Shown in pieces: positions 1 through 45,456 of a stretch of 64,000 bases of DNA. The notes under the pieces were generated by a model. That model ran no database searches. It was not told where the DNA came from and saw only the letters and a program-made list of their open reading frames with translations. Source of the DNA: Octopus sinensis (lineage: Eukaryota); assembly GCF_006345805.1 (NCBI RefSeq), contig NC_043017.1, positions 18,414,001 through 18,478,000 on the forward strand, given 5' to 3'. The stretch's first letter is position 1. Every line of letters starts with the position of its first letter. Both the position numbers and the translations under genes were made by a program.

Positions 1-893
1 GAGGGAACAGTTATGGCTGGAACATCTTTGCTTATAGTTCTGATAGGTGAGAAATAACCACAATGAAGAACACAGTTTAGTTCTAGATACTCCTATGTCT
101 GAATAACATGGGATAGTCACAGTCGGAACGTCTCATTGCATGTTGGATGAATCAGAGCTAACTTGAAGTTAATCATAATTATCCACTTTCTCCATGCTCG
201 CATCGGTCAAACAGACTGGCCAGAGGCCCTTGTCAACCGTCACTTGTGTCCATATAAGGTAATATTTCTCATTGACCAGCCATATCTTGGGGATTGAGAG
301 CAAAAAAAAAGGGACACTGAATGACAGTGACACTTGTTTACAACGGGGTACATATGTAAGAGGAGGGGGAGGAGGAATGGTTACATTGCAGCTGAGTGGT
401 TAACAAGCTTGCTTCCCAACCATGTTCAGCAAAAAGTTTAGCCAAGTTTCTTCTAGTACAGTCCCAGGTAAAACAAAGCCCTGTGAAGGGATTTGGTAGA
501 TGGGCTCGCAAATAAGCCTGTCAAATTTGTGTATGTGTGTACATCTGTGTTGATATCATTTGATAGTTGCAAACAAACATCCTTCTCACACAAGCAGTGC
601 TATTCATTTTCAGTCTTCCATGCATGATACAACATGTCTGGCCATGAGGAAACATTACCTTGCTTGGAAACAGTTGAAGGCTAACTACAGAACGGGGTAA
701 CTGACCATAGAAAACCTGCCACAACAAAATTCATCTAACTCATACAAGTATGCAAATGTGGACATTAAAACAATGATAATTAATGACAATTAAGCAGTGC
801 TGTATTTGCACTGCCCAACCAATTCTTCTACAAACAACAGCAGCAAAGACATAAAAATTGGAAGACAGAGACAAATTAAAGTGCCACCCTTAC

Positions 894-1059
894 CTGTAGG
901 AACACCAGGAGGGACGCCCATAGGAACTGGCATCGGGGGTCTGGCCATAATGGCATTGTTCGGTACAGGTGGGCCTTGGTTCATTATCATTGACTGAGAG
1001 GAGTTTCCATTGTCTGGTTGTTCTGATGGAGGAGACTTCCGCTGACCAGGGACATCCTG
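894..1059 (-). CDS. NABP2: SOSS complex subunit B (NABP1/2, SSB1/2-like), coding exon 5 (Pro/Met-rich tail; gene continues left of the window)
   Basis: Acceptor TTGCAG|CAG GAT (NAGNAG), donor ACA G|GTAAGG; peptide QDVPGQRKSPPSEQ...GVPPGVPT; phase 0 matches the upstream exon. Confidence 0.75.
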
Positions 1060-2523
1060 CTGCAATAGAAAAGCACTTCATTTTAAAAGCTAATTAACTG
1101 AATCCTGATTATCTCAACACAAAAAGAAAGGCATGGATTGTTGAAGGTACTTGACAGGATCCACTAGGGCTGTGTAGTGTGTCCAAGTTAACAGGGTACC
1201 AGATACTCAACAGAGAAGGGTTACAGGCACTGTAGTGTGCCCAAGTCAAAAGGGCACCAGATATTCTGAGATAAGGTTCACTGGTGTTGTGTAATGTACC
1301 CAATACTCACATAAGGGGTCATCAGTGAATGAGTGGGATGGTTGATGCTTTAAGCCTCGGTCAGCAGTAACCCAGCACTTATGATCAAAGACATTCCAGC
1401 AGTGACCATCCTGTTAAACTCCTCACACACACACACTTGCTCACACAGACGAGCATACCCAAGACTACACCATTCAACATAACCATCCTCTTCAAAACAT
1501 TAGACTGTCATTGGGAGTCATATTTAGCTACTGTTTCTATTAGATTGCTTGAAACAACTGGCTGGCGTCTTTCCTGTTCCGAGTGCAAAATCGACGAGTA
1601 AAGCCAGAGTTTATCTGCAACATAGTGACAGCATCTGGTGATATTTGAACCGGTGTCCTTGTGATCCATTGTCCAACAACATACTAGTTCTCAATCTTTT
1701 GCATTTTATGCCACATTGCAATTTAAAAATGCAGAAATCTATTATCCCGTTTCAGTAATCGTACTTCCATTTAACCCTTTATTTTAACCATATTTCTGCT
1801 GAAAAACACTGTCTTTGTTTCAATTAATTTTGACAAAGAATTTAGCAAATTAACTTTTACCATTATTCAACTGGTGTTTGGAACCCAAAATGAATTAGAA
1901 ATTTTGGAAGGTTTTAATTAATATCACATCAAAACGGGGAATTTATGGATGTGTATCAAAAGGGTTGATTCAAGACGATGATGAAGGGAATTGTCTGGGA
2001 TATGCACTGGAATTGAACTTATGGTTATAAAATAGGCTTCTTAACCACCCAGCCATACCAGAGTCCATATAGGAAGGACATCAATAGTAGAAACAATGCC
2101 AGTCCAGACTTTAGTTTTGCGGTTAGCAGCAAGAAGGACATCAATCAAAAACCACCTCCAGCCCATGCAAGGATTGAAGAGAGAAAATGTTAAAAGGAAA
2201 CAAAAGTTTCTGAAAGAACAGCATGAAGATCACAGCTTCCACACCATTACCCCATTTCATTAACACTGTTTCATGCTTGCATGAGTTGAAATTTAATGAA
2301 ACAAACTTTTCTGTGGCTGGATGCCCTTCCTGTCACTAACCCCCACCTATTTCTAAGCAAAGAAATATTCCCTCATGGCTGAAAAATTTGAAATCTGGGC
2401 ACCACATGCATTTCCACTGGGATTCAACCCAAAGCTATGTTATTGGGGAGCAAACTTCTTACCACAGAACCACACCTGGGCCTTCAATTAATTATCCAGA
2501 ATATTCCAAAAAGAAAGAAGTAC

Positions 2524-2581
2524 CTTGAAATCTAAATTGGCTTCACTCATGTTTGGTGTCTCAATAAACTGCATCGTGAAT
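2524..2581 (-). CDS. NABP2: SOSS-B/NABP coding exon 4
   Basis: TTCCAG|A TTC ACG ATG CAG TTT ATT GAG ACA CCA AAC ATG AGT GAA...AAG|GTACTT = (E)FTMQFIETPNMSEANLDFK, resembling the NABP motif EFCMVYSEVPNFSEPN. Confidence 0.85.
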
Positions 2582-3545
2582 CTGGAAAGGAGAAAAATGA
2601 AACAGAACAAAACAAGAAACATTAGATATAAAATGGCAGCCAAAGAATACAAGGAAGAAAAACAACAGATTACAGAAATAGCCCTCCACCCTGATTGCTC
2701 CCATCCACTCTAATGTGCATAACCATGCAACCTCTCAACAGCAAGAAACCTGTTCTGTTTGGGCCCTTTCACTTTAACCTCTCATTTCCAAGCAAAGTGC
2801 CACATCCCTCTCTACTGTAACCCCACTTAGGGTTTCAAAAAGGCACCCCATACAATCTGTATTGTTGGTATTAGAAAGGGCATCCAGCTGTAGAAAGCAT
2901 GCCAAAAGAGACATTGGGGCCTGATGCAACTCCGTAGCTCATTGGATCCCGTCAAACTAACTCATACCAGCACAGAAAATGGATGTGAAAAGATGACCCC
3001 ACACACACAATCTCCTTTAAAAACATGTACACATATTTGCTTCAAGCAAACAGACAGGAACATATTGGAGAACAATGAGAACAGAACCAATTCTAACATT
3101 ATAAAATTGGTTTCTGTTGTCATAGTGAGGACTTGTTGCTGTGGTGATTAATGATGGTGGTTCAAGTGAGTTGTCCAACTTGCTACCCAAAGAAAAAAAA
3201 AAGAGTACGTTTGATGATGTACAAAAGAGAAATAAACAACAGCATTACCACAGCTGGAAAGCAACGATCGCAGATCTCTTTTGCCACCACACAATCTCCT
3301 AAAAATAGCAACCAAAAAATCCCTAAATCCCATCTTGTCTTCAAAAAATAAAAAGGTAAGATGGGATGGTCATGGGGCTAACCATACATAATCTCTACCA
3401 AGGTTAAATAACAGAAACATCAAATATTGTTATGCTAATCCTTCATCTGACATTGAGCTGTCTTCAAACTGTGTGTGGGGGGTTATCAATGAGGCAAACC
3501 CCACCATTAGACATACAGTGCAACAACAACAACCACATTACTTAC

Positions 3546-3617
3546 TCTCCCATTTTGGTGATTTCACCATTCTTGCCAGTATACAGTGTCAAACATCCTT
3601 TCCAAAGTGAGGAATAA
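3546..3617 (-). CDS. NABP2: SOSS-B/NABP coding exon 3
   Basis: TATAG|T TAT TCC...GGA GA|GTAAGT = (G)[23 protein letters not shown](E), the conserved OB-fold KGCLTLYTG motif. Confidence 0.9.
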
Positions 3618-4412
3618 CTATAAAGAAACAACAAATGAAATAGATTTATTTTAACCAATCAACAAGGGTTCCACACACACACACACACATTGACACTCCA
3701 GTCTGATGAGGGAAGGAAGACTGCTGTGAGTGCAGCTGTATTCTGTCTCTAAATGCAAGAGTCGATGCCTCATCAGGGAGTGAAATAGCTGTAAGGTTTC
3801 CAGCCTTCTCTACTGCAACATCAAAACTGCCCAAAGCCACTTGCTGATGTCAGTTAAACTCCCTTACACAACAGCACACCTTAAAACAGAAAAATAGAGC
3901 TGCAATACTACTGTTGCTGTTTATTCTTAAGTTTAACCCTTTTGTTAGCACATTTCTGTTGAAATATGCAGACTTTGTTTCAATTAATTGTAAAAATTGA
4001 AAATTTAAACTGATCTAGTCCCTCCTCTTAGGCTGTAGTTTGGAACATAAACATGAAATTTTAATTTAGATAATTCTTAATTCTAAAACAAGTTAATATC
4101 ATCTGAACAGCATTAGGCTGAGGTGGTTTGGCATTAAAAGTGTTCAACATGAAAAATTTAATAGAAGCAGTATCTGGTGAGTTGTATTGAAAAGAAAAAG
4201 AGCATCTAAGACAACACGGCCTCACTAAATATGCCTAAAAAATTGGGATGGTCATGGCTGGAATGCAGTTGACTAGGGTTGACTTTAAGCTAAGCAACAA
4301 CATGGCTGTTTGGTTAAAACGTTTTTCTATCAAGTCACTGAGTTTAATCACATCATAGAGCTCCTGGTGGCTCTGGTCAACACAAACTGTAAATGTAACT
4401 GGCCGTTTTCCA

Positions 4413-4566
4413 TGTACCCTCAGCTCTCATAATCTACGTCACAGGCTCCCTCTCAGTGACAGCCACTATCACACACTCACACACACATACATAAATGCAT
4501 ACACACATTTATACAGCAGCTGTTCACTGAGTGAACCTCAAGTCAGGTTTCTCATCATTGGGTACA
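4413..4566 (-). ncRNA. Box C/D guide RNA (scaRNA-like, SNORD97/SCARNA97-like), copy 1; predicted guide for Cm34 of elongator tRNA-Met
   Basis: Minus strand: terminal stem TGTACCC/GGGTACA, box C ATGATGA, box D CTGA preceded by AGATTATGAGAG, internal hairpin with GU-repeat apex; intronic and sense to the SOSS-B host. Confidence 0.85.
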
Positions 4567-5378
4567 AGAAATATTCTACATCAAGTTACAATTGTACTGA
4601 CCAAGTGTTTCTTCTAACCACACAGAATACAAGCATTCAACCACATGGTTTCAGGTTCCTTTTTACTGCATGGCACCTTGGGCAAGTGTCTCCTACTGTA
4701 GCCCCAAATCAACCAAACCATTATGAGTGGATTTGCTAAATGGAAACTGGAAGTCCACCACAATTTTTTATATATATATATGCTTAAAAATTACCTTTGA
4801 ATTGCTGGGTGTCAAGCCAGTCTCTTGCAACCACAAGTTTCATCTATAGGTATAAAGGATCTGCAGGCAATTTATGATTGAAGGTAATGAATCTCATACA
4901 CACCCGAACATACATATACACTTGTATAACCTTTGAAATTAACATACCTGAAATTGCCCCTGGTTTTAAAGCGATCTAAATTCAAACTACCCATTAAAAT
5001 TTCATGTCATGTCCAAAACAAGTTTAATAATGACAGATATTTTACTAAATTACTCTTTTTTTTTCTTCAAAATAATTCAAAGTCTGGGTATTTTAACAGA
5101 AATACAGGAACAAAATGGTTTCACCCTTTAGCATTGAAATTCCTCAGTTAAAAATATTGCCTATTTATTCAAATTGTGTTTAGCTAATCATGCATTTAGT
5201 AGCTTTGAGATTTCAGTGATGTAAAAGTTTATTTTGAAAATGACATTGTAGGGTAAGTGTGAGAGGCTGGACATAGCTAAAGAGTTAAGAGAATGCAACC
5301 CTCACTCAAGATTACATCCAGTCTCTCTCTGCTTGTAAAGACACCCCACCATGAGTGTTAAAACATGCAAGTTTTCTA

Positions 5379-5532
5379 TGTACCCTCAGCTCTCATAATC
5401 TGTGTCATTGGCTCCCTCTCAGTAGCAGCCACTATCACACACTCACACGTACAGCCTCACACACACACACACATATATACAGCAGCTATCCACTGAGTGA
5501 ACCTCAAGTTCTGTTTCTCATCATTGGGTACA
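5379..5532 (-). ncRNA. Box C/D guide RNA (SNORD97/SCARNA97-like), copy 2
   Basis: Same boxes, stem and guide (CAGATTATGAGAG-CTGA); most diverged copy, with compensatory changes in the internal stem. Confidence 0.83.
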
Positions 5533-6417
5533 TGAAACTACAATATTTGTCCCACCCCAACCTTAAAGCAACATATCTACCCTTATTACAGTAATACAAG
5601 CCAACCTCGAGGTTGTGAAAATAGCAGCTGCATGTCCCCCACAGAAATTGTAGTGCCATACAAGTCAGGATGGTCATGGCTGGAACGCCTTTAAAAAGGT
5701 CTTGTCAACCTATTTGATCTGCGGCTACAATATGGTAGTATGGTTAAGAAATTCAATTTGCTATGACTAGAACAACAGAACTGTCATCGTAAGTTACCTC
5801 CCTTGTCTGTTAATTCAAGCCATGTGAGTTAACAAAACTAAATGGAAACTGTGTGGAAGCCTGTCAGACTGCTTCTGTTCTCGTGTACCATTAATGCTGT
5901 ACATCCTGCTGGAAGACTTCATAACCACTGCTTGGTTTTCAGATATCAATCTTTTCTTCCATTAATCATAGCTGCTACTCGTCTCCTGTCGAGAACTACT
6001 ATAAGTATATCCACGCATGGGCCCGGTGGTTAAGCTCGCTTCGTAACCCCATGGTTTCCGGTTCAGCCCTCCTGTGCAGCATCTCAAGCGTCTTCTTTCG
6101 CCCTAGCCATAACCCAATAACTTGAGTGAATTTGGTAGATGGAAACTGCATAGAAGCGCATCGTGTTTATATTACGTATCTCTATTTGTCTCCACCACCA
6201 TTGGTTTGTTTACATTCCCTTTACTGGTTTGGCAAAATAGATTAATAGAATAAGGACGGGACTTGCCAAATTGTTTTAGTGGAATATTTTAAGATATTTT
6301 GTGTACTACTTAACCTCATGACGTCCCCTTCAGGAATTTCACATTCCTAACCATAACACCAAGGGGTCGTACCTAGACATTAGCCAGGGTGTGGAAGGAG
6401 TTTTGTATTTTTTTCAA

Positions 6418-6571
6418 TGTACCCTCAGCTCTCATAATCTGCGTCACAGGCTCCCTCTCAGTAACAGTCACTATCACACACTCGCACATACATAAATGCA
6501 TTCACTCACACATTTATACAGCAGCTGTTCACTGAGTGAACCTCAAGTCAGGTTTCTCATCATTGGGTACA
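6418..6571 (-). ncRNA. Box C/D guide RNA (SNORD97/SCARNA97-like), copy 3
   Basis: Same boxes, stem and guide; 12-nt complement to TCTCATAATCTG. Confidence 0.85.
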
Positions 6572-7010
6572 AGGAATATTCTACAAAAAGTTACAAATGT
6601 ACTGACGAAAGCAGTTATTTGTTCTACCCCTACAACGGTATTCACTTTTATAGCACGTGCTTACATCCTAATTCTGCTCGATAAAAAGTACCACAGAACA
6701 AAGTAACAGCTAAATCGGCGATCATTCGGTATTGTCTCCAGATTGCCGATATGAGACATCAATTAATTTCTTTTTCAGCCTAGTCTATTTGTCTAGGTCT
6801 TGTGTGGGTACGCATACACACACAATACCCAGGACACTAGTTCTGAGGTGCTATGCAAACACAACCAAAGTAGAAAAAAAAATGTGGTAAAGGGAGGGAA
6901 CTCTAGCGACTTAGGTTGACCCCCCCCCCGCTCCCTCCTCAATAATTATAAAGGGGCCAAGTACACCCTTCAGGAAAGGTTACGATCACTTAGTCCTTGA
7001 TTGGTACCTA

Positions 7011-7496
<486 letters not shown>

Positions 7497-8281
7497 TTAA
7501 ATACATGAAACAATTTGAAATCCCTGCATATATCTAAGTAAAACTACATTACCTAGCCACTCGCCATTTGATAGTGAGTGCGTATTGTAATAGATTAAAT
7601 TCCTATGAACCCCATTAACTACCTCGAAACAAGGTAACGCCAACCACCCATCTTATACACTTTTACAACTTTATAAAATATGTTATCAATGCACACAAAT
7701 CCCGACTTCCCTACTATATTAGTTACTAAAACGTCTTTGCTGTTCGATTGCGTACGCACGAGGTAAAAATAATATTAGCCGTTTTCTATAGGAACACAAG
7801 ACAAAGTGACTGTTTACCATGTGCTGTGCAAAGGTGTGTATATATATATATATATATATATACACAGACACACCAGCTCTTACACGCTGTTACATACCTA
7901 GAGAGAGAGGACCCTTCCATAGTCAGCTAGAACCAGTAAAATAGAAGATAAATATAGATAAATGTAGCACCACCAGACATGCCCCCAACTCAACCAATCA
8001 GGACGATTCCATTAGTTCACCACTACCAACCAATCGCCCGTCACAACACTATCCTCCACCACCCCCTGCTTCGTCTAAAAATGGACTCTTCCATGTCAGC
8101 AGATAATTTTAAAGACACCGTATCACAAGTAGAATATGTATATACATATACACATATATACACACATAATATTACGAGACCACCACCCCGGGTTGGGGGA
8201 GGGAATCGGGGTGCAATTAGGGTGTAGTTAAGTTACGCACGTTGACGGCTGTTTTTTTTTCTGTTTGTGTGTATTACCTAC

Positions 8282-8369
8282 CTATTTCCAGAACAATAAA
8301 AGCAACATTAAGACTCTTCAGACCAGGTCTTATGTCTTTGATTTGCATAAATGCAGGATGGCCGTCCAT
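8282..8369 (-). CDS. NABP2: SOSS-B/NABP coding exon 1 (start codon)
   Basis: ATG at 8369; MDGHPAFMQIKDIRPGLKSLNVAFIVLEI(G)|GTAGGT matches the NABP N-terminal KDIKPGLKNLNxxFIVLEIG pattern. Confidence 0.9.
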
Positions 8370-8431
8370 CGAAATATTAAAAAAAAAAAAATTAAAGGAA
8401 ATATAAATATCACAAACACACACCCCGACTA

Positions 8432-8731
8432 CCGGAAGTCGTGAAAAAAATGCCAAGTTGGACTACTTCCGTTATGGAAGGACAAGAAAAAAATTATGTA
8501 AGAAAAAAAAATCAAGTTCCGTTTCGGTCCCCCCCTATCTATCTTATAAGCCGCCTCAGGTATCAATTATGTTGGTTGAATGTCCGAGAAATCAGAAAGC
8601 TTCATATTGCTGTTGCTTATAAACAAATAAATAAAGACTACTACTAAGGATGAAGCGAAAGTATAAATCGTTTTGTCAGTGAAGGGCGGGAAAGAAACAT
8701 AAAATGGCGTTCAGTGGAAGTCAGCCATTTT
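8432..8731. promoter_or_regulatory. Probable housekeeping promoter region of SOSS-B
   Basis: ETS-type CCGGAAGT (8432-8439) and ACTTCCG (8465-8471); YY1-type AAAATGGCG (8701-8709) and GCCATTTT (8724-8731); locally more CpG, just upstream of the ATG. Confidence 0.45.
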
Positions 8732-9245
8732 TTCCCCCACCCTTTAATGTGACAAGACAAAGAAAAACTTTCAGTAATTATAAATATCTCTGAAAATAAA
8801 TCTGTAGTACGCCACGGCTTCGCTTCTTTTCCGTCTTTCTATAAAGACGATCAACGCAATAGATGACAACAGGAAGGCAGTGGGAGACTAATATAGAAGT
8901 GTAAAAAAAAAAAAAAAAAAATGGCTAAGGCTACTATACAACTACGGCTAAATGTTTGCTTGTAAATGACCCAAAGAGAAAAACAACAGGGAGGCTTTCT
9001 TTCCTAAAGACAAGCGTTATGGAGTATATATACGTCGAGTACCGGCTTAGAGTGTGAGTGAAGGTGTGAATGAGTAAGAGCGAGGACAGAAGTGAAGACG
9101 ATCACGGCTGCGGTCCTTCTGCCTCGTGTTGTAGAGGAGTCGATTTATAGCAGTTACATACGGGCATTTACACACAGGCGATGTATGTGTGTATATACAT
9201 ATATGTGTATGCTATAAACACATACGGGCATTTGTATAATATGGC

Positions 9246-20414: not shown

Positions 20415-21824
20415 TTATTTGACATTTTCCACTTTAATGAATTTGGCAATAAAAAACCCGATTGTGTCTCTGTTAAAGGCGTCTTTGCTATCACCTGAAA
20501 CGTCTGGTTTAAACCGATGAACTAACTTCAGATGTTCTGGTGATAGGGAAGAACCTACTAAACCAGTATCTCCAATATGAGGCTCCTGTGCAGTGAGGAC
20601 GAGCTGAGGGAAGGTAGCCAGAACCCAAGCCACTTGTTCTTCATTTTCTGCTAAAGTTATGGTGCAAGTACTGTATACCAAAGTACCACCGACTTTTAAC
20701 AGTCCGACGGCTTGTCGAAGTAGTTTACGTTGATACATGGGGAAAGACTTCAGCCACGATAAACCCATTTTGTTACAACACGACGGTCTCTGGCCGAGAG
20801 CACTGCACGGAGCATCAAGCAGAATCCGGTCAAAGGTTCCCGGAGGGTAGGGAGGACCTTTGGTTGCTTCAGCTGAATCTTGAAGTGATTTTGTGGAATC
20901 AAATGTATAAACCTCAACACATGTTAGACCCCAGCAAGACACTAAAGAGGTTAGGCGCTCTACTTTGAGTTTAGTGCGATCTATCGCCACCAGGCGGCCT
21001 TTGTTTCTCATCAGTGTGGCAATATGAGTGGTTTTGCCCCCTGGAGCGGCACACATATCGAGGACAGTATCGTTTGGCTGAGGGTTCAGCACGTAGCTAC
21101 AAACGGCCGAGGGAAGATTTTGGGCAAATATCAAATCTGAGGTTAAATTGTCAAGTCTTGGAGCTGAATACAGAGCATTCGTTACCGATACACCGACTCC
21201 TGATAATACATGATCGGGCGACGAGTCGCGGAAGATCTGATTGCGACTGACGAGGGCAACGCCGTTCCCGAGAAAAATTTTCTCCCCCTTCAAAGGCTGT
21301 GTTTGTCCGCGAAGACAAGATCCTTCCATATCGACATACAGCGAAACAATGTCCCCACGAGTCATATCCAAAGGAGCACCAATGATCCCCTGAACGAACA
21401 CTTCAGATCCCCTTAGTACCGACATACCACACATGTGGTCAACAACTATTTGGTCTTCTCGTCTCTCGATCGACTGAACTGGCCCGGCATTAGGTATTAT
21501 CACAACATCGGGCATGAGAGGGTGGAAGAAAGGCTCAGCCAGTTGCACGGCTCTTTTTCTGTGGTTGTCTATCAACTGTTCTTTGAGGAGGGCGAGTAGA
21601 GATTCGGGGTCCTGTTGGAGGGTGTTTACACGTACGACAGTAAAGAGAGGCGGGATTGGAAGAAGAGAGAGTATACGACAAATTTCTTTCTCACATCTGT
21701 CTCTGTCACTTTCAATAGACTTGGGGAAATTCAGAGATTCTGTCTTCAGGTATTCCAGAACTTCACTATTCAATTTAATTTGAGGTGGGAGACAATCATC
21801 TGCAGTTTGTTCATTCCTCTCCAT
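20415..21824 (-). CDS. NSUN6: tRNA (cytosine-72)-C5-methyltransferase NSUN6, intronless, 469 aa
   Basis: Single ORF: TVVRVNTL N-terminal motif, PUA-like region (VLRGSEVFVQGI), QNLPSAVCSYVL, motif I DMCAAPGGKT, motif IV DRILLDAPCS, motif VI VYSTCT, C-terminal DTIGFFIAKF. Confidence 0.95.
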   Translation of the reverse strand: MERNEQTADDCLPPQIKLNSEVLEYLKTESLNFPKSIESDRDRCEKEICRILSLLPIPPLFTVVRVNTLQQDPESLLALLKEQLIDNHRKRAVQLAEPFFHPLMPDVVIIPNAGPVQSIERREDQIVVDHMCGMSVLRGSEVFVQGIIGAPLDMTRGDIVSLYVDMEGSCLRGQTQPLKGEKIFLGNGVALVSRNQIFRDSSPDHVLSGVGVSVTNALYSAPRLDNLTSDLIFAQNLPSAVCSYVLNPQPNDTVLDMCAAPGGKTTHIATLMRNKGRLVAIDRTKLKVERLTSLVSCWGLTCVEVYTFDSTKSLQDSAEATKGPPYPPGTFDRILLDAPCSALGQRPSCCNKMGLSWLKSFPMYQRKLLRQAVGLLKVGGTLVYSTCTITLAENEEQVAWVLATFPQLVLTAQEPHIGDTGLVGSSLSPEHLKLVHRFKPDVSGDSKDAFNRDTIGFFIAKFIKVENVK

Positions 21825-23113
21825 GTTTCACTCAACACCGAATAGTGAAACCGGTGTCTTATTAAATAAAGTCCCCTGTAAGATTTGTTTTACCCTGGAT
21901 ATTTATATATAAACACGATGAAACAATTATAGCGTGGAAGACCCATTAGCCATTGCAAATAAAAAAAAAAAAAAGAAAGAAACTAACACACGAAAAACTG
22001 TTAACTTCAACCAAGGAATGAATGTTTAAGTTAACAGTTTTGCTGTGTTTTTTAATGACTAATATGTCCTCCACGCAGAAATTGTTTTCGTTTTCAGCAA
22101 ATGGTTTTCAGAATCAAACCACTTGCCTAGCAAGTACGATATGGAATGAAATACGAGTCTTAGAAGCTGGCAATAGAGAGAGAAAAGGCATATGTACACA
22201 TGCACGCACACAGACAAACATCAAGAAAGACAATAGTGAACACAAAGATTCGGTTTCAAATCAGTTGTCAGACGGTTGATACTAGGAGTTATGTAAATAT
22301 ACACATACACACAAAGGGAAAATTTCCGGAGAAACTAAGTGAAGCCTTCATTTTATGGAAATCGTTATTTTAGGGATTCTTATGATTTTCCAGGTTACAA
22401 CACACACCAACCTAAAACGTGACTGGATTTGATTTTTTTTTTTTTTGAGAAATATGTTTAATAAATTCTAAAACCCTCTGGTAGTCTTTCTGTCAGTAAC
22501 TTTGTGGTGTTATTGTAGCTACAGAGATTGTATCGAAACAAGGAGTCCTAAATATTGCTGTTTTGCAGGATTTTAAAGCAGGCATTTAAAAATTTACTGA
22601 AAAAAAAAAAAAAACGTTAAACATATTGTGAAGTGAGGCAAGGGAGATAACTGAGGTAAAACAGATTTGATTGAGAGAAAGATTAACACAGCACACTTAT
22701 GCTATATATGATCTTTCTATGTATTATTATTTATATTAGATGTGTATTGATGCAGTTTTTCTTTTCTTCTTATCCTTATCCATTTCTTCAAACACGTGGA
22801 AATTGACGAGAGTGACTATCAGTATTTTATAAATAACTGTTGTGTTTCAGCCAGCATAGTTTCCTGGTCCCTTGTTCTGAAAATTCTCAGAATTCATCTG
22901 GCTATTCTCCTATATTTTGTTATCATCTCGGTGATAGGTACATGAAACGAGGCATCGTTGCTCATATCAACCCCTGAATCAAACTGTTTGACACCAGAAG
23001 ATTGGTGCTTCTTTTCGTTCAAAGTATTTTTGCTGTGGCGTTAGCTCAAGCCAGCTGATAACGGAGGTCTTTGAGTGTTCCTGCATTAAGTAGCATATTG
23101 TTTTCTTCAGTTC

Positions 23114-44401: not shown

Positions 44402-45456
44402 GAATCATCATCATCATCATTTAACGTCCGTTTTCCATGCTAGCATGGGTTGGCCGGTTCGACCGGGGTCTGGAAAGCCTTGAAGGCTGCACCAGGCTCC
44501 AGTCTGATTTGGCAGTGTTTCTACAGCTGGATGCCCTTCCTAACGCCAACCACTCCGTGAGTGTAGTGGGTGATTTTTACATGCCACCGGCACAGGGACC
44601 AGACGAGGCTGGCAAACAGCCATGATCAGTTGGTGCTTTTACGTGTCACCGACACAGACGCCAGTCAGGCAGCACTGGCATCTGATGAGATGAGCTCTGA
44701 CTTTCTCACGGGAGGGCTGCAATCAGAAAACCACTACTTTCAAAAACAAATGATAGAAAGCATTCAGAGTGGAGTAAAAACCTACAGAATTGGTCCCTAG
44801 AGCAATGGAAGACTGTTATTTTTTCAGATGAGCCATCCTTTACCTTATTTCTGACCACCTGCTGAGTATATGTGTGGAGACAGCCAAAAGGTGCATTTGA
44901 CCCAGACTGCCTTCTTCCAACTGTTAAACATGGAGAAGGATCTGTGATGATCTGGGGGCTGTATCTTGGAAATCTGCCAGCGCAACGGTTTCCTTTCATG
45001 GCAGGATTAATAGTCAAGACTATTTAAGCATTTTATCTGATCAAATTCCTCCTATGGTTGTGGAACTGTTTCCGGAAAGAAATGCAATCTTTCAGGATGA
45101 TAATGCACCAATTCACACACCTAAAGTTGTTACTGAATGGCATGAGGAACATTTTAGTGAAGTCAAACATCTTATCTGGCCACCACAGTCCCCAGATCTC
45201 AATATTATTGAACATTTATGGCGCATTTTAGAAAAACAAGCAAGGAGTCGATATCCTCCACCATCATCACTACAAGAACTGGGAACAGTTTTAGCTGAAG
45301 AATGGACAAAAATTTCTTTCGAAACAATTCAAACTTTGTATGAGTCCATACCTCGTAGAATTCAAGCTGTAATTACTGCCAAAGGCGGTTCTTTCCCATA
45401 TTAAAATGAATTTGTTTGAAATTTTAAGGTGATTCCATTATTTTGTCCAACCCCTG
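44059..45456 (+). mobile_element. Tc1-like DNA transposon relic (DD36E spacing) with nested insertions
   Basis: 30-bp TIRs TAGGGCTTGGACAAAATAATGGAATCACCT / AGGTGATTCCATTATTTTGTCCAACCCCTG; transposase remnants WKTVIFSDE, FQDDNAPIH, WPPQSPDLNIIE; stop codon and frameshifts. Confidence 0.88.

Follow-up and report, generated by a model that had tools for sequence, protein, structure and literature searches.

Human SNORD97 and SCARNA97 have been shown to install the 2'-O-methyl group on C34 (Cm34) of elongator tRNA-Met (PMC6601510). Both, the latter also called SNORD133, are encoded in the sense orientation within introns, as single genes in EIF4G2 and LARP4. The same study predicts homologues in Drosophila, silkworm, honey bee, Ciona, Arabidopsis, and rape, with one candidate per genome and no mollusc listed; it gives the tRNA-Met sequences of Ciona, Drosophila, and Bombyx without introns (PMC6601510). 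A different arrangement is reported for plants and archaea, where introns of elongator tRNA-Met lie within the guide duplex and guide and target covary, which implies methylation before splicing (PMC10576143). Box C/D RNPs use at most 10 nucleotides: reconstituted archaeal and fungal particles work best with 9 to 10 bp, and duplexes of more than 10 bp inhibit modification in vitro (PMC7229835). A 2026 review raises loss of the tRNA-Met intron in animals as one explanation (PMC13578239), and intron-dependent modification has been speculated to retain tRNA-Met introns (PMC12168002). In the literature covered here, which included few subscription papers (among it PMC4536317, PMC4090602, PMC12530127, and PMC6962438), neither a molluscan copy of this guide nor an intron in an animal tRNA-Met gene is described; the octopus intron described below may already be annotated somewhere.

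We describe three elements in a 64,000-nucleotide stretch of the Octopus sinensis genome (the window) that are very probably box C/D guides of the SNORD97/SCARNA97 family targeting C34 of elongator tRNA-Met, a conclusion drawn from sequence and predicted structure. The guide family is ordinary and widespread; the new point is an intron-bearing target. The octopus copies share with the human RNAs the core of the terminal stem, box C followed by NAAA, an 11-nt guide upstream of box D, the register that places C34, and an intronic sense position. They differ in that all three copies lie in one intron of the NABP/SOSS-B gene, in an interior built as a UG/UA-rich hairpin where the human SNORD97/SCARNA97 counterpart is pyrimidine-rich, in the absence of the GACGCG element on the D' side of the Rfam SNORD97 consensus, and in the introns of their target genes.

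The three elements occupy 4413-4566 (c1), 5379-5532 (c2), and 6418-6571 (c3), all on the - strand of the window and all in the sense orientation with respect to the host gene. Each has a length of 154 nt. In all three copies a terminal stem of 7 bp closes the element, box C (AUGAUGA) follows close to the 5' end, and box D (CUGA), preceded by the guide and a single G, lies close to the 3' end. In c3, box C lies at 6563-6557, D' at 6546-6543, the apical hairpin at 6542-6449, C' at 6448-6442, the guide at 6441-6430 with the base opposite C34 at 6433, and box D at 6428-6425. The corresponding parts of c2 are box C at 5524-5518, the hairpin at 5503-5410 with 8 UG in a run, the guide at 5402-5391, and box D at 5389-5386. 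Those of c1 are box C at 4558-4552, the hairpin at 4537-4444, the guide at 4436-4425, and box D at 4423-4420. The base 5 nt upstream of box D is a G, opposite C34 of elongator tRNA-Met, while the 12th and outermost guide base is U in c1, where it wobbles with G42, and C in c2 and c3. Further inside, a 5-bp stem is flanked in 3/3 copies by a D' box at positions 26-29 (UUGA) and a C' box at 124-130 whose core is UGAC; these boxes are degenerate and were assigned by inspection. The D' spacer is just 10 nt long and varies between the copies and among homologues.

These elements stand out from their surroundings. The guide with box D is matched 3 times in the window and in 0 of 100 shuffles, and the ATGATGA box C occurs on the - strand of window positions 1-9000 in the three elements only. 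A DNA search of the whole genome (2.7 Gb) returned these three copies alone. Searching for divergent copies by guide plus CUGA gave 14 matches outside the window in 13 regions, none with box C or the stem, and five of these regions are copies of one repeat; when the D box of the motif was relaxed there were 48 matches, below the reversed control (76). Pairwise identity among the copies ranges from 132 to 143 of 154 positions, with c2 the most diverged (132/154 to both c1 and c3). The stem, boxes, and guide make up 44 core columns, and all 27 variable columns lie outside them (P about 4e-5 for random placement), which we count as evidence of selection on the guide RNAs. Predicted stem cells are paired in 89 of 90 cases, with one compensatory and two one-sided changes; covariation was not above the shuffle control (177/500) with three sequences only. 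Folding z-scores are -3.5, -2.0, and -1.8. An earlier sequence-only reading of this DNA had proposed the three sense-strand elements with invariant boxes, stem, and guide, and a G opposite C34, and on all of these points our results agree with it, the last also with the octopus tRNA-Met genes. Its description of the flanks as largely unrelated holds for c2, whose flanks are mostly at chance level, but not for c1 and c3, which have 33 of 40 nt of the 5' flank in common.

The host gene was assembled from five coding exons on the - strand, which together form an open NABP/SOSS-B frame: exon 1 at 8282-8369 (predicted from frame and splice sites), exon 2 at 7120-7258, exon 3 at 3546-3617 (frame and splice joint), exon 4 at 2524-2581, and exon 5, a proline-rich tail, at 894-1056 (the last two also predicted). 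Exon 2 encodes the OB fold and matches SOSS complex subunit B1 (E 2e-17); its product agrees with an Octopus vulgaris protein at every position (100%) and is 98% identical to that of Argonauta, which identifies the animal as an octopus and bears out the earlier guess of a probable cephalopod. Intron 2 (3618-7119, - strand, 3502 nt, GT..AG) contains c1, c2, and c3. The splice joint 3617-7120 is present in 2 of 2 RNA-like sequencing runs and in 0 of 2 large runs (15 of 159 joints listed), where the "RNA" nature of the two spliced runs is the tool's guess. Intron 2 is thus excised as one piece in the RNA-like runs, although small internal exons may exist. The exon frame, the exon 2 match, and the spliced joint bear out the sequence-only reading that the guides are intronic and sense in a SOSS-B gene. 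The sequencing data are assembled contigs, which carry no information on RNA ends or levels; low-depth intronic contigs cross the guides, and the four runs are so nearly identical to the window that they add no cross-species covariation.

Clusters of snoRNAs within one intron are known in flies and plants. In vertebrates, splicing-coupled snoRNP assembly favours a distance of roughly 70-80 nt from the splice site. The octopus guides lie 2800 (c3), 1761 (c2), and 795 nt (c1) from the 3' splice site, far beyond that distance, and we therefore infer assembly through the terminal stem and endonucleolytic separation of the copies. High-copy interspersed repeats lie between the guides at about 4630-4760, 5150-5280, and 6070-6200, where they appear as peaks of depth.

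Elsewhere in the window, 12 kb upstream of the host gene, a 470-aa uninterrupted frame of the RsmB/F methyltransferase family (20415-21827, - strand) is presumably NSUN6-like; a single-exon gene of this kind is unusual here. Exons of a large gene with RCC1 repeats span 35201-60757 (- strand), which we take to be probably a HERC-type ubiquitin ligase, and 44928-45404 (+ strand) holds a fragment of a DDE_3 (Tc1-like) transposase.

Family membership was assessed by the ends of the RNA and by its guide. Each of the three copies aligns along the entire Rfam SNORD97 model (RF01291) and has the terminal stem, the NAAA after box C, and the guide of the Rfam consensus. The scores are 19.8-20.8 bits (E 1.8-2.8), below the gathering score of 45 bits; at gathering threshold, Rfam gives 0 matches in the whole window and so misses the octopus guides. 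Other homologues fall below it as well: 5 of 17 loci match RF01291 at 28-34 bits and none at 45. The model misses divergent interiors, and we therefore class the copies as homologues by ends and guide rather than as Rfam members. In this sense the proposal of a SNORD97-like system is upheld by stem, NAAA, guide, and C34 register, but not by the Rfam score.

Homologues in other organisms place the octopus copies in a broad family. Metagenome contigs scanned with the 3' motif yielded 64 loci, with 64 matches to assess once one duplicate locus had been dropped. Their 3' ends match by construction, whereas the 5' end is independent evidence: CCC and box C lie upstream in 40 of the 64, compared with 2 of 141 control windows. 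Of the remainder, 5 are too close to a contig end and 19 lack the 5' end. The 40 two-ended homologues form 17 groups, are 105-254 nt long, and are eukaryotic. Sense-strand neighbours in 27 homologue loci include NAC, SMC, Sin3, CCT, ribosomal protein L23, an elongation-factor GTPase, and helicases; these genes are adjacent only, not proven hosts. SOSS-B was matched in none of the 64 loci within the 1.5 kb per side that was searched. Since invertebrate homologues were already predicted and the neighbours vary, an invertebrate copy in a new host gene is unsurprising; the NABP/SOSS-B host proposed earlier is real, but neither point adds much that is new. Another organism carries two tandem guide copies 1.1 kb apart (L100:28-280 and 1173-1420), so local multiplication is not unique to octopus. 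Sub-threshold snoRNA-like matches also lie beside the guide at other loci (L065:559-647, L085:605-685, and L073:1435-1558).

The family probably extends to nematodes. The Caenorhabditis elegans RNA CeN56 (Rfam RF01643, listed as sRNA) matches at both its 5' and its 3' end and carries almost the same guide, with 17-21 bits against a gathering score of 60, and on this evidence it is probably the nematode member of the SNORD97 family. CeN56 is lowered on depletion of C/D snoRNPs, in a passage that draws no link to tRNA-Met (PMC2442092).

The interior of the octopus guides is unlike that of their relatives. The tip of the apical hairpin is a UG/UA repeat, where G-U accounts for 10 of 22 pairs in both c1 and c2 and for 5 of 17 in c3. 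Runs of UR reach 8, 12, and 5 in the octopus copies compared with at most 3 in 17 homologue representatives, and a homologue that is not a representative (L078) has a UR run of 5. Human SCARNA97 carries a pyrimidine-rich Cajal-body signal (PMC6601510). The octopus copies lack this feature: their best 30-nt pyrimidine fraction is 0.50-0.53, compared with at least 0.9 in 6 of 17 homologue groups. Strongly pyrimidine-rich, SCARNA97-like interiors were seen in homologues L047, L072, L073, L085, L086, and L104; if any of these are invertebrate, the signal predates vertebrates. In other C/D scaRNAs of vertebrates the signal is a G.U/U.G stem on top of the apical hairpin, for which six UG repeats are enough (PMC4041459). 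The octopus guides resemble two of these, U90 and mgU2-47, in the long apical hairpin topped by UG/UA repeats, but U90 and mgU2-47 guide modification of snRNAs, the signal is described for vertebrates only, and the repeat of c3 is weaker (Marnef et al. 2014, PMC4041459). Independent gain of a UG wobble-stem Cajal-body signal by the three guides is a tentative proposal that we hold to be rather doubtful. The tip folds differ between copies, and microsatellites are common in the region, where 180 of 6396 sampled windows are equally UR-rich. An octopus scaRNA of the mgU2-47 type was sought as a positive control and gave 9 matches, none with box C and stem. The Drosophila-type GUUAnUG motif was rejected, as it occurs in c3 only and inside a stem.

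The target genes set octopus apart from the human system. The sequence-only reading assumed a human-type, intronless tRNA-Met, and this assumption fails: 35 of 36 matches to the elongator tRNA-Met pattern are interrupted after base 37 by an intron of 15-22 nt, and the single intronless match is a degenerate copy. The loci examined hold 36 intron-containing genes in 11 places on 9 contigs (C2, C5, C8, C11, C14, C17, C22, C27, and C10885), several of them in tandem clusters and all with a T run within 25 nt downstream. The exons are near-identical to Ciona and zebrafish sequences. These intact genes were recovered only by DNA similarity and then by a gapped pattern. An intronless pattern gave 12 matches, none an ARAGORN gene, and a second pattern gave 2 degenerate copies, one of them called tRNA-Met and mismatched in the anticodon and T stems; both sets were rejected. 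An intronless tRNA search alone would thus falsely imply that the target is missing. Intronless, degenerate, or partial copies (L016:1483-1557, L017, and L011) may be retroposed spliced tRNAs or old intronless relics. A search of viral contigs found no intron-containing tRNA-Met and was uninformative.

The introns are variable, with one exception. The 30 distinct sequences fall into 14 clusters with a mean middle identity score of 0.37, and nearly all have GAG at -5 to -3. All 30 begin with ATC, the same three bases with which exon 2 starts. Entropy is 0 at positions +1 to +3 and 1.1-1.8 bits at +4 to +10, and from +4 onward the modal base is found in 13-22 of the 30. The introns are related by descent and perhaps homogenised, so that 30 of 30 does not amount to 30 independent tests. 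A G stands at -3 in 30/30; an anticodon-intron pair has been described (PMC10275265), and this G fits that pair only in the canonical placement, which supports the canonical intron position. Other intron-containing tRNA genes of the same genome served as controls. None of 38 distinct tRNA-Tyr introns (55 genes) begins with ATC, though Tyr exon 2 does; none of 4 distinct tRNA-Leu introns (from 5 of 7 intron-containing genes) copies exon 2; and tRNA-Ile(TAT), for which a stricter first pattern gave no matches, yielded 3 matches, 2 with an intron, of a single type that starts with GAC. A tRNA-Tyr cluster at C4:115.54-115.71 Mb holds 52 intron-containing matches, among them 18 near-identical units arrayed in tandem.

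With introns in the tRNA-Met genes, the substrate of the guide likely changes. Contiguous guide pairing spans 10 bp in 35 of 36 pre-tRNAs and 11-12 bp in the remaining one; among the spliced tRNAs, 34 of 36 give 12 bp. The 10-bp duplex that guide bases -2 to -11 can form is unchanged by splicing, and in both forms of the tRNA C34 lies opposite the fifth base from box D. Bases -12 and -13 are complementary to U41 and G42 of the spliced tRNA, which makes the mature tRNA, on paper, at least as good a partner. The earlier claim of a guide that is the exact 11-12-nt complement of its target accordingly fits the spliced tRNA but not the pre-tRNA, and base 12 of c1 wobbles with G42. Predicted energies average -13.5 to -13.8 kcal/mol for the pre-tRNA duplex, and -9.9 with Tyr intron starts swapped in; they are -15.4 to -17.5 kcal/mol for the spliced tRNA. 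In predicted pre-tRNA folds the intron AUC is mostly unpaired (probability 0.66-0.81), while the intron GAG competes for C32-C34. Pairing of AUC with the GAG at the 3' end of its own intron or with G30 was rejected (probability at most 0.03). Copy c2 also contains, at positions 20-30, an 11-nt stretch complementary to the arm of spliced tRNA-Leu(CAA); this stretch was rejected as a guide, because it overlaps the D' box, has no D-like box at the right distance, and is absent from c1 and c3.

For the invariance of ATC in all introns, the likeliest reason is methylation at least partly on the pre-tRNA, with selection on the intron start. The guides may instead act only on spliced tRNA-Met, with ATC left over from the birth of the intron in a short tandem duplication and since preserved because gene copies homogenise, or because of some other requirement, for instance formation of t6A37 or recognition by an endonuclease. 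The 12-bp duplex with the spliced tRNA and its lower energy speak for this view, as does a guide identical to that of animals with intronless tRNA-Met, which had no need to adapt. Formation of t6A37 requires an A after A37, which the intron provides, but this covers base +1 at most, and the Ile-TAT intron begins with G. Homogenisation, for its part, failed to hold the bases from +4 onward; invariance ends exactly at the edge of the 10-bp window, and the Tyr, Leu, and Ile introns of the same genome have free 5' ends. The longer duplex is itself a doubtful advantage given the inhibition seen in vitro above 10 bp (PMC7229835). We consider action on spliced tRNA alone unlikely, while granting it real weight.

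Two further explanations concern the elements themselves. That they are unexpressed relics, or a local repeat built on a microsatellite, would agree with the richness of the window in microsatellites, with the sampled windows that reach the same UG/UA density (180/6396), and with the fact that no mature RNA of about 150 nt was seen, in contig data that are unable to show RNA ends. Relics of this kind would hardly be expected as just three copies, all sense within a spliced intron, with core columns unchanged while the c2 flanks are at random identity, and the thirteen other regions with guide and CUGA lack box C and stem; we judge this very improbable. The high-copy dispersed repeat without strand bias, named earlier as a result that would count against the guides, was likewise not seen, as the genome search gave three copies, all sense. 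Least probable of all, in our estimate, is that the main target is another RNA (rRNA, snRNA, or another tRNA) reached through the D or D' guide. Human D97 does have other tRNAs among its targets, as well as a D' guide directed at Gm22 (PMC10576143). In the RNAs scanned (18S, 5.8S, and 28S to model position 2763 of 3401), the D guide reached at best a run of 8 bases, including several G-U pairs, and D' a run of 7, so that the check for better rRNA targets suggested in the sequence-only reading found none. The short, variable D' spacer is also a poor fit to a second guide, and a published search of human RNAs gave tRNA-Met for the same guide (PMC6601510). One 18S rRNA match (L114:902-3546) spans 2645 nt against an 1831-position model, which indicates large insertions.

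We propose that methylation of C34 takes place at least partly on unspliced pre-tRNA. The guides would be released from intron 2 of the NABP/SOSS-B pre-mRNA and, judging by their anatomy, would form particles in which fibrillarin, Nop56, Nop58, and 15.5K occupy the C/D and C'/D' kink-turns. By homology and the D+5 rule, they would direct 2'-O-methylation of C34 in elongator tRNA-Met(CAU). The free AUC could act as a toehold while C32-C34 pair with the intron GAG, and selection would keep the intron start complementary to an unchanged guide. Taken as a whole (family, target, Cm34 made partly on pre-tRNA, and an intron start selected to fit the guide), this proposal from sequence is one that we hold to be reasonably likely. 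We lean, if only slightly, towards the specific claim that nearly all octopus elongator tRNA-Met genes carry an intron whose first three bases are selected to mimic exon 2, so that an ancestral guide methylates C34 before splicing. In plants and archaea guide and target covary, whereas in octopus an unchanged animal guide would be matched by an intron that copies exon 2, and both forms of the tRNA fit.

The role of Cm34 in octopus may lie in decoding, in stability, or in resistance to another nuclease. Protection from angiogenin, proposed earlier by analogy with human cells, is unlikely to apply, because angiogenin, an enzyme of the vertebrate RNase A family, is to our knowledge specific to vertebrates. 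Intronless vertebrate genes cannot tell whether guides of the SNORD97 type act on pre-tRNA or on mature tRNA. Octopus makes such questions, raised in recent papers, testable in an animal, with 30 natural intron variants that share the three bases needed by the guide. If the proposal is true, a snoRNA would have shaped a tRNA intron in an animal, and the genome would supply evidence that methylation comes first and splicing follows.
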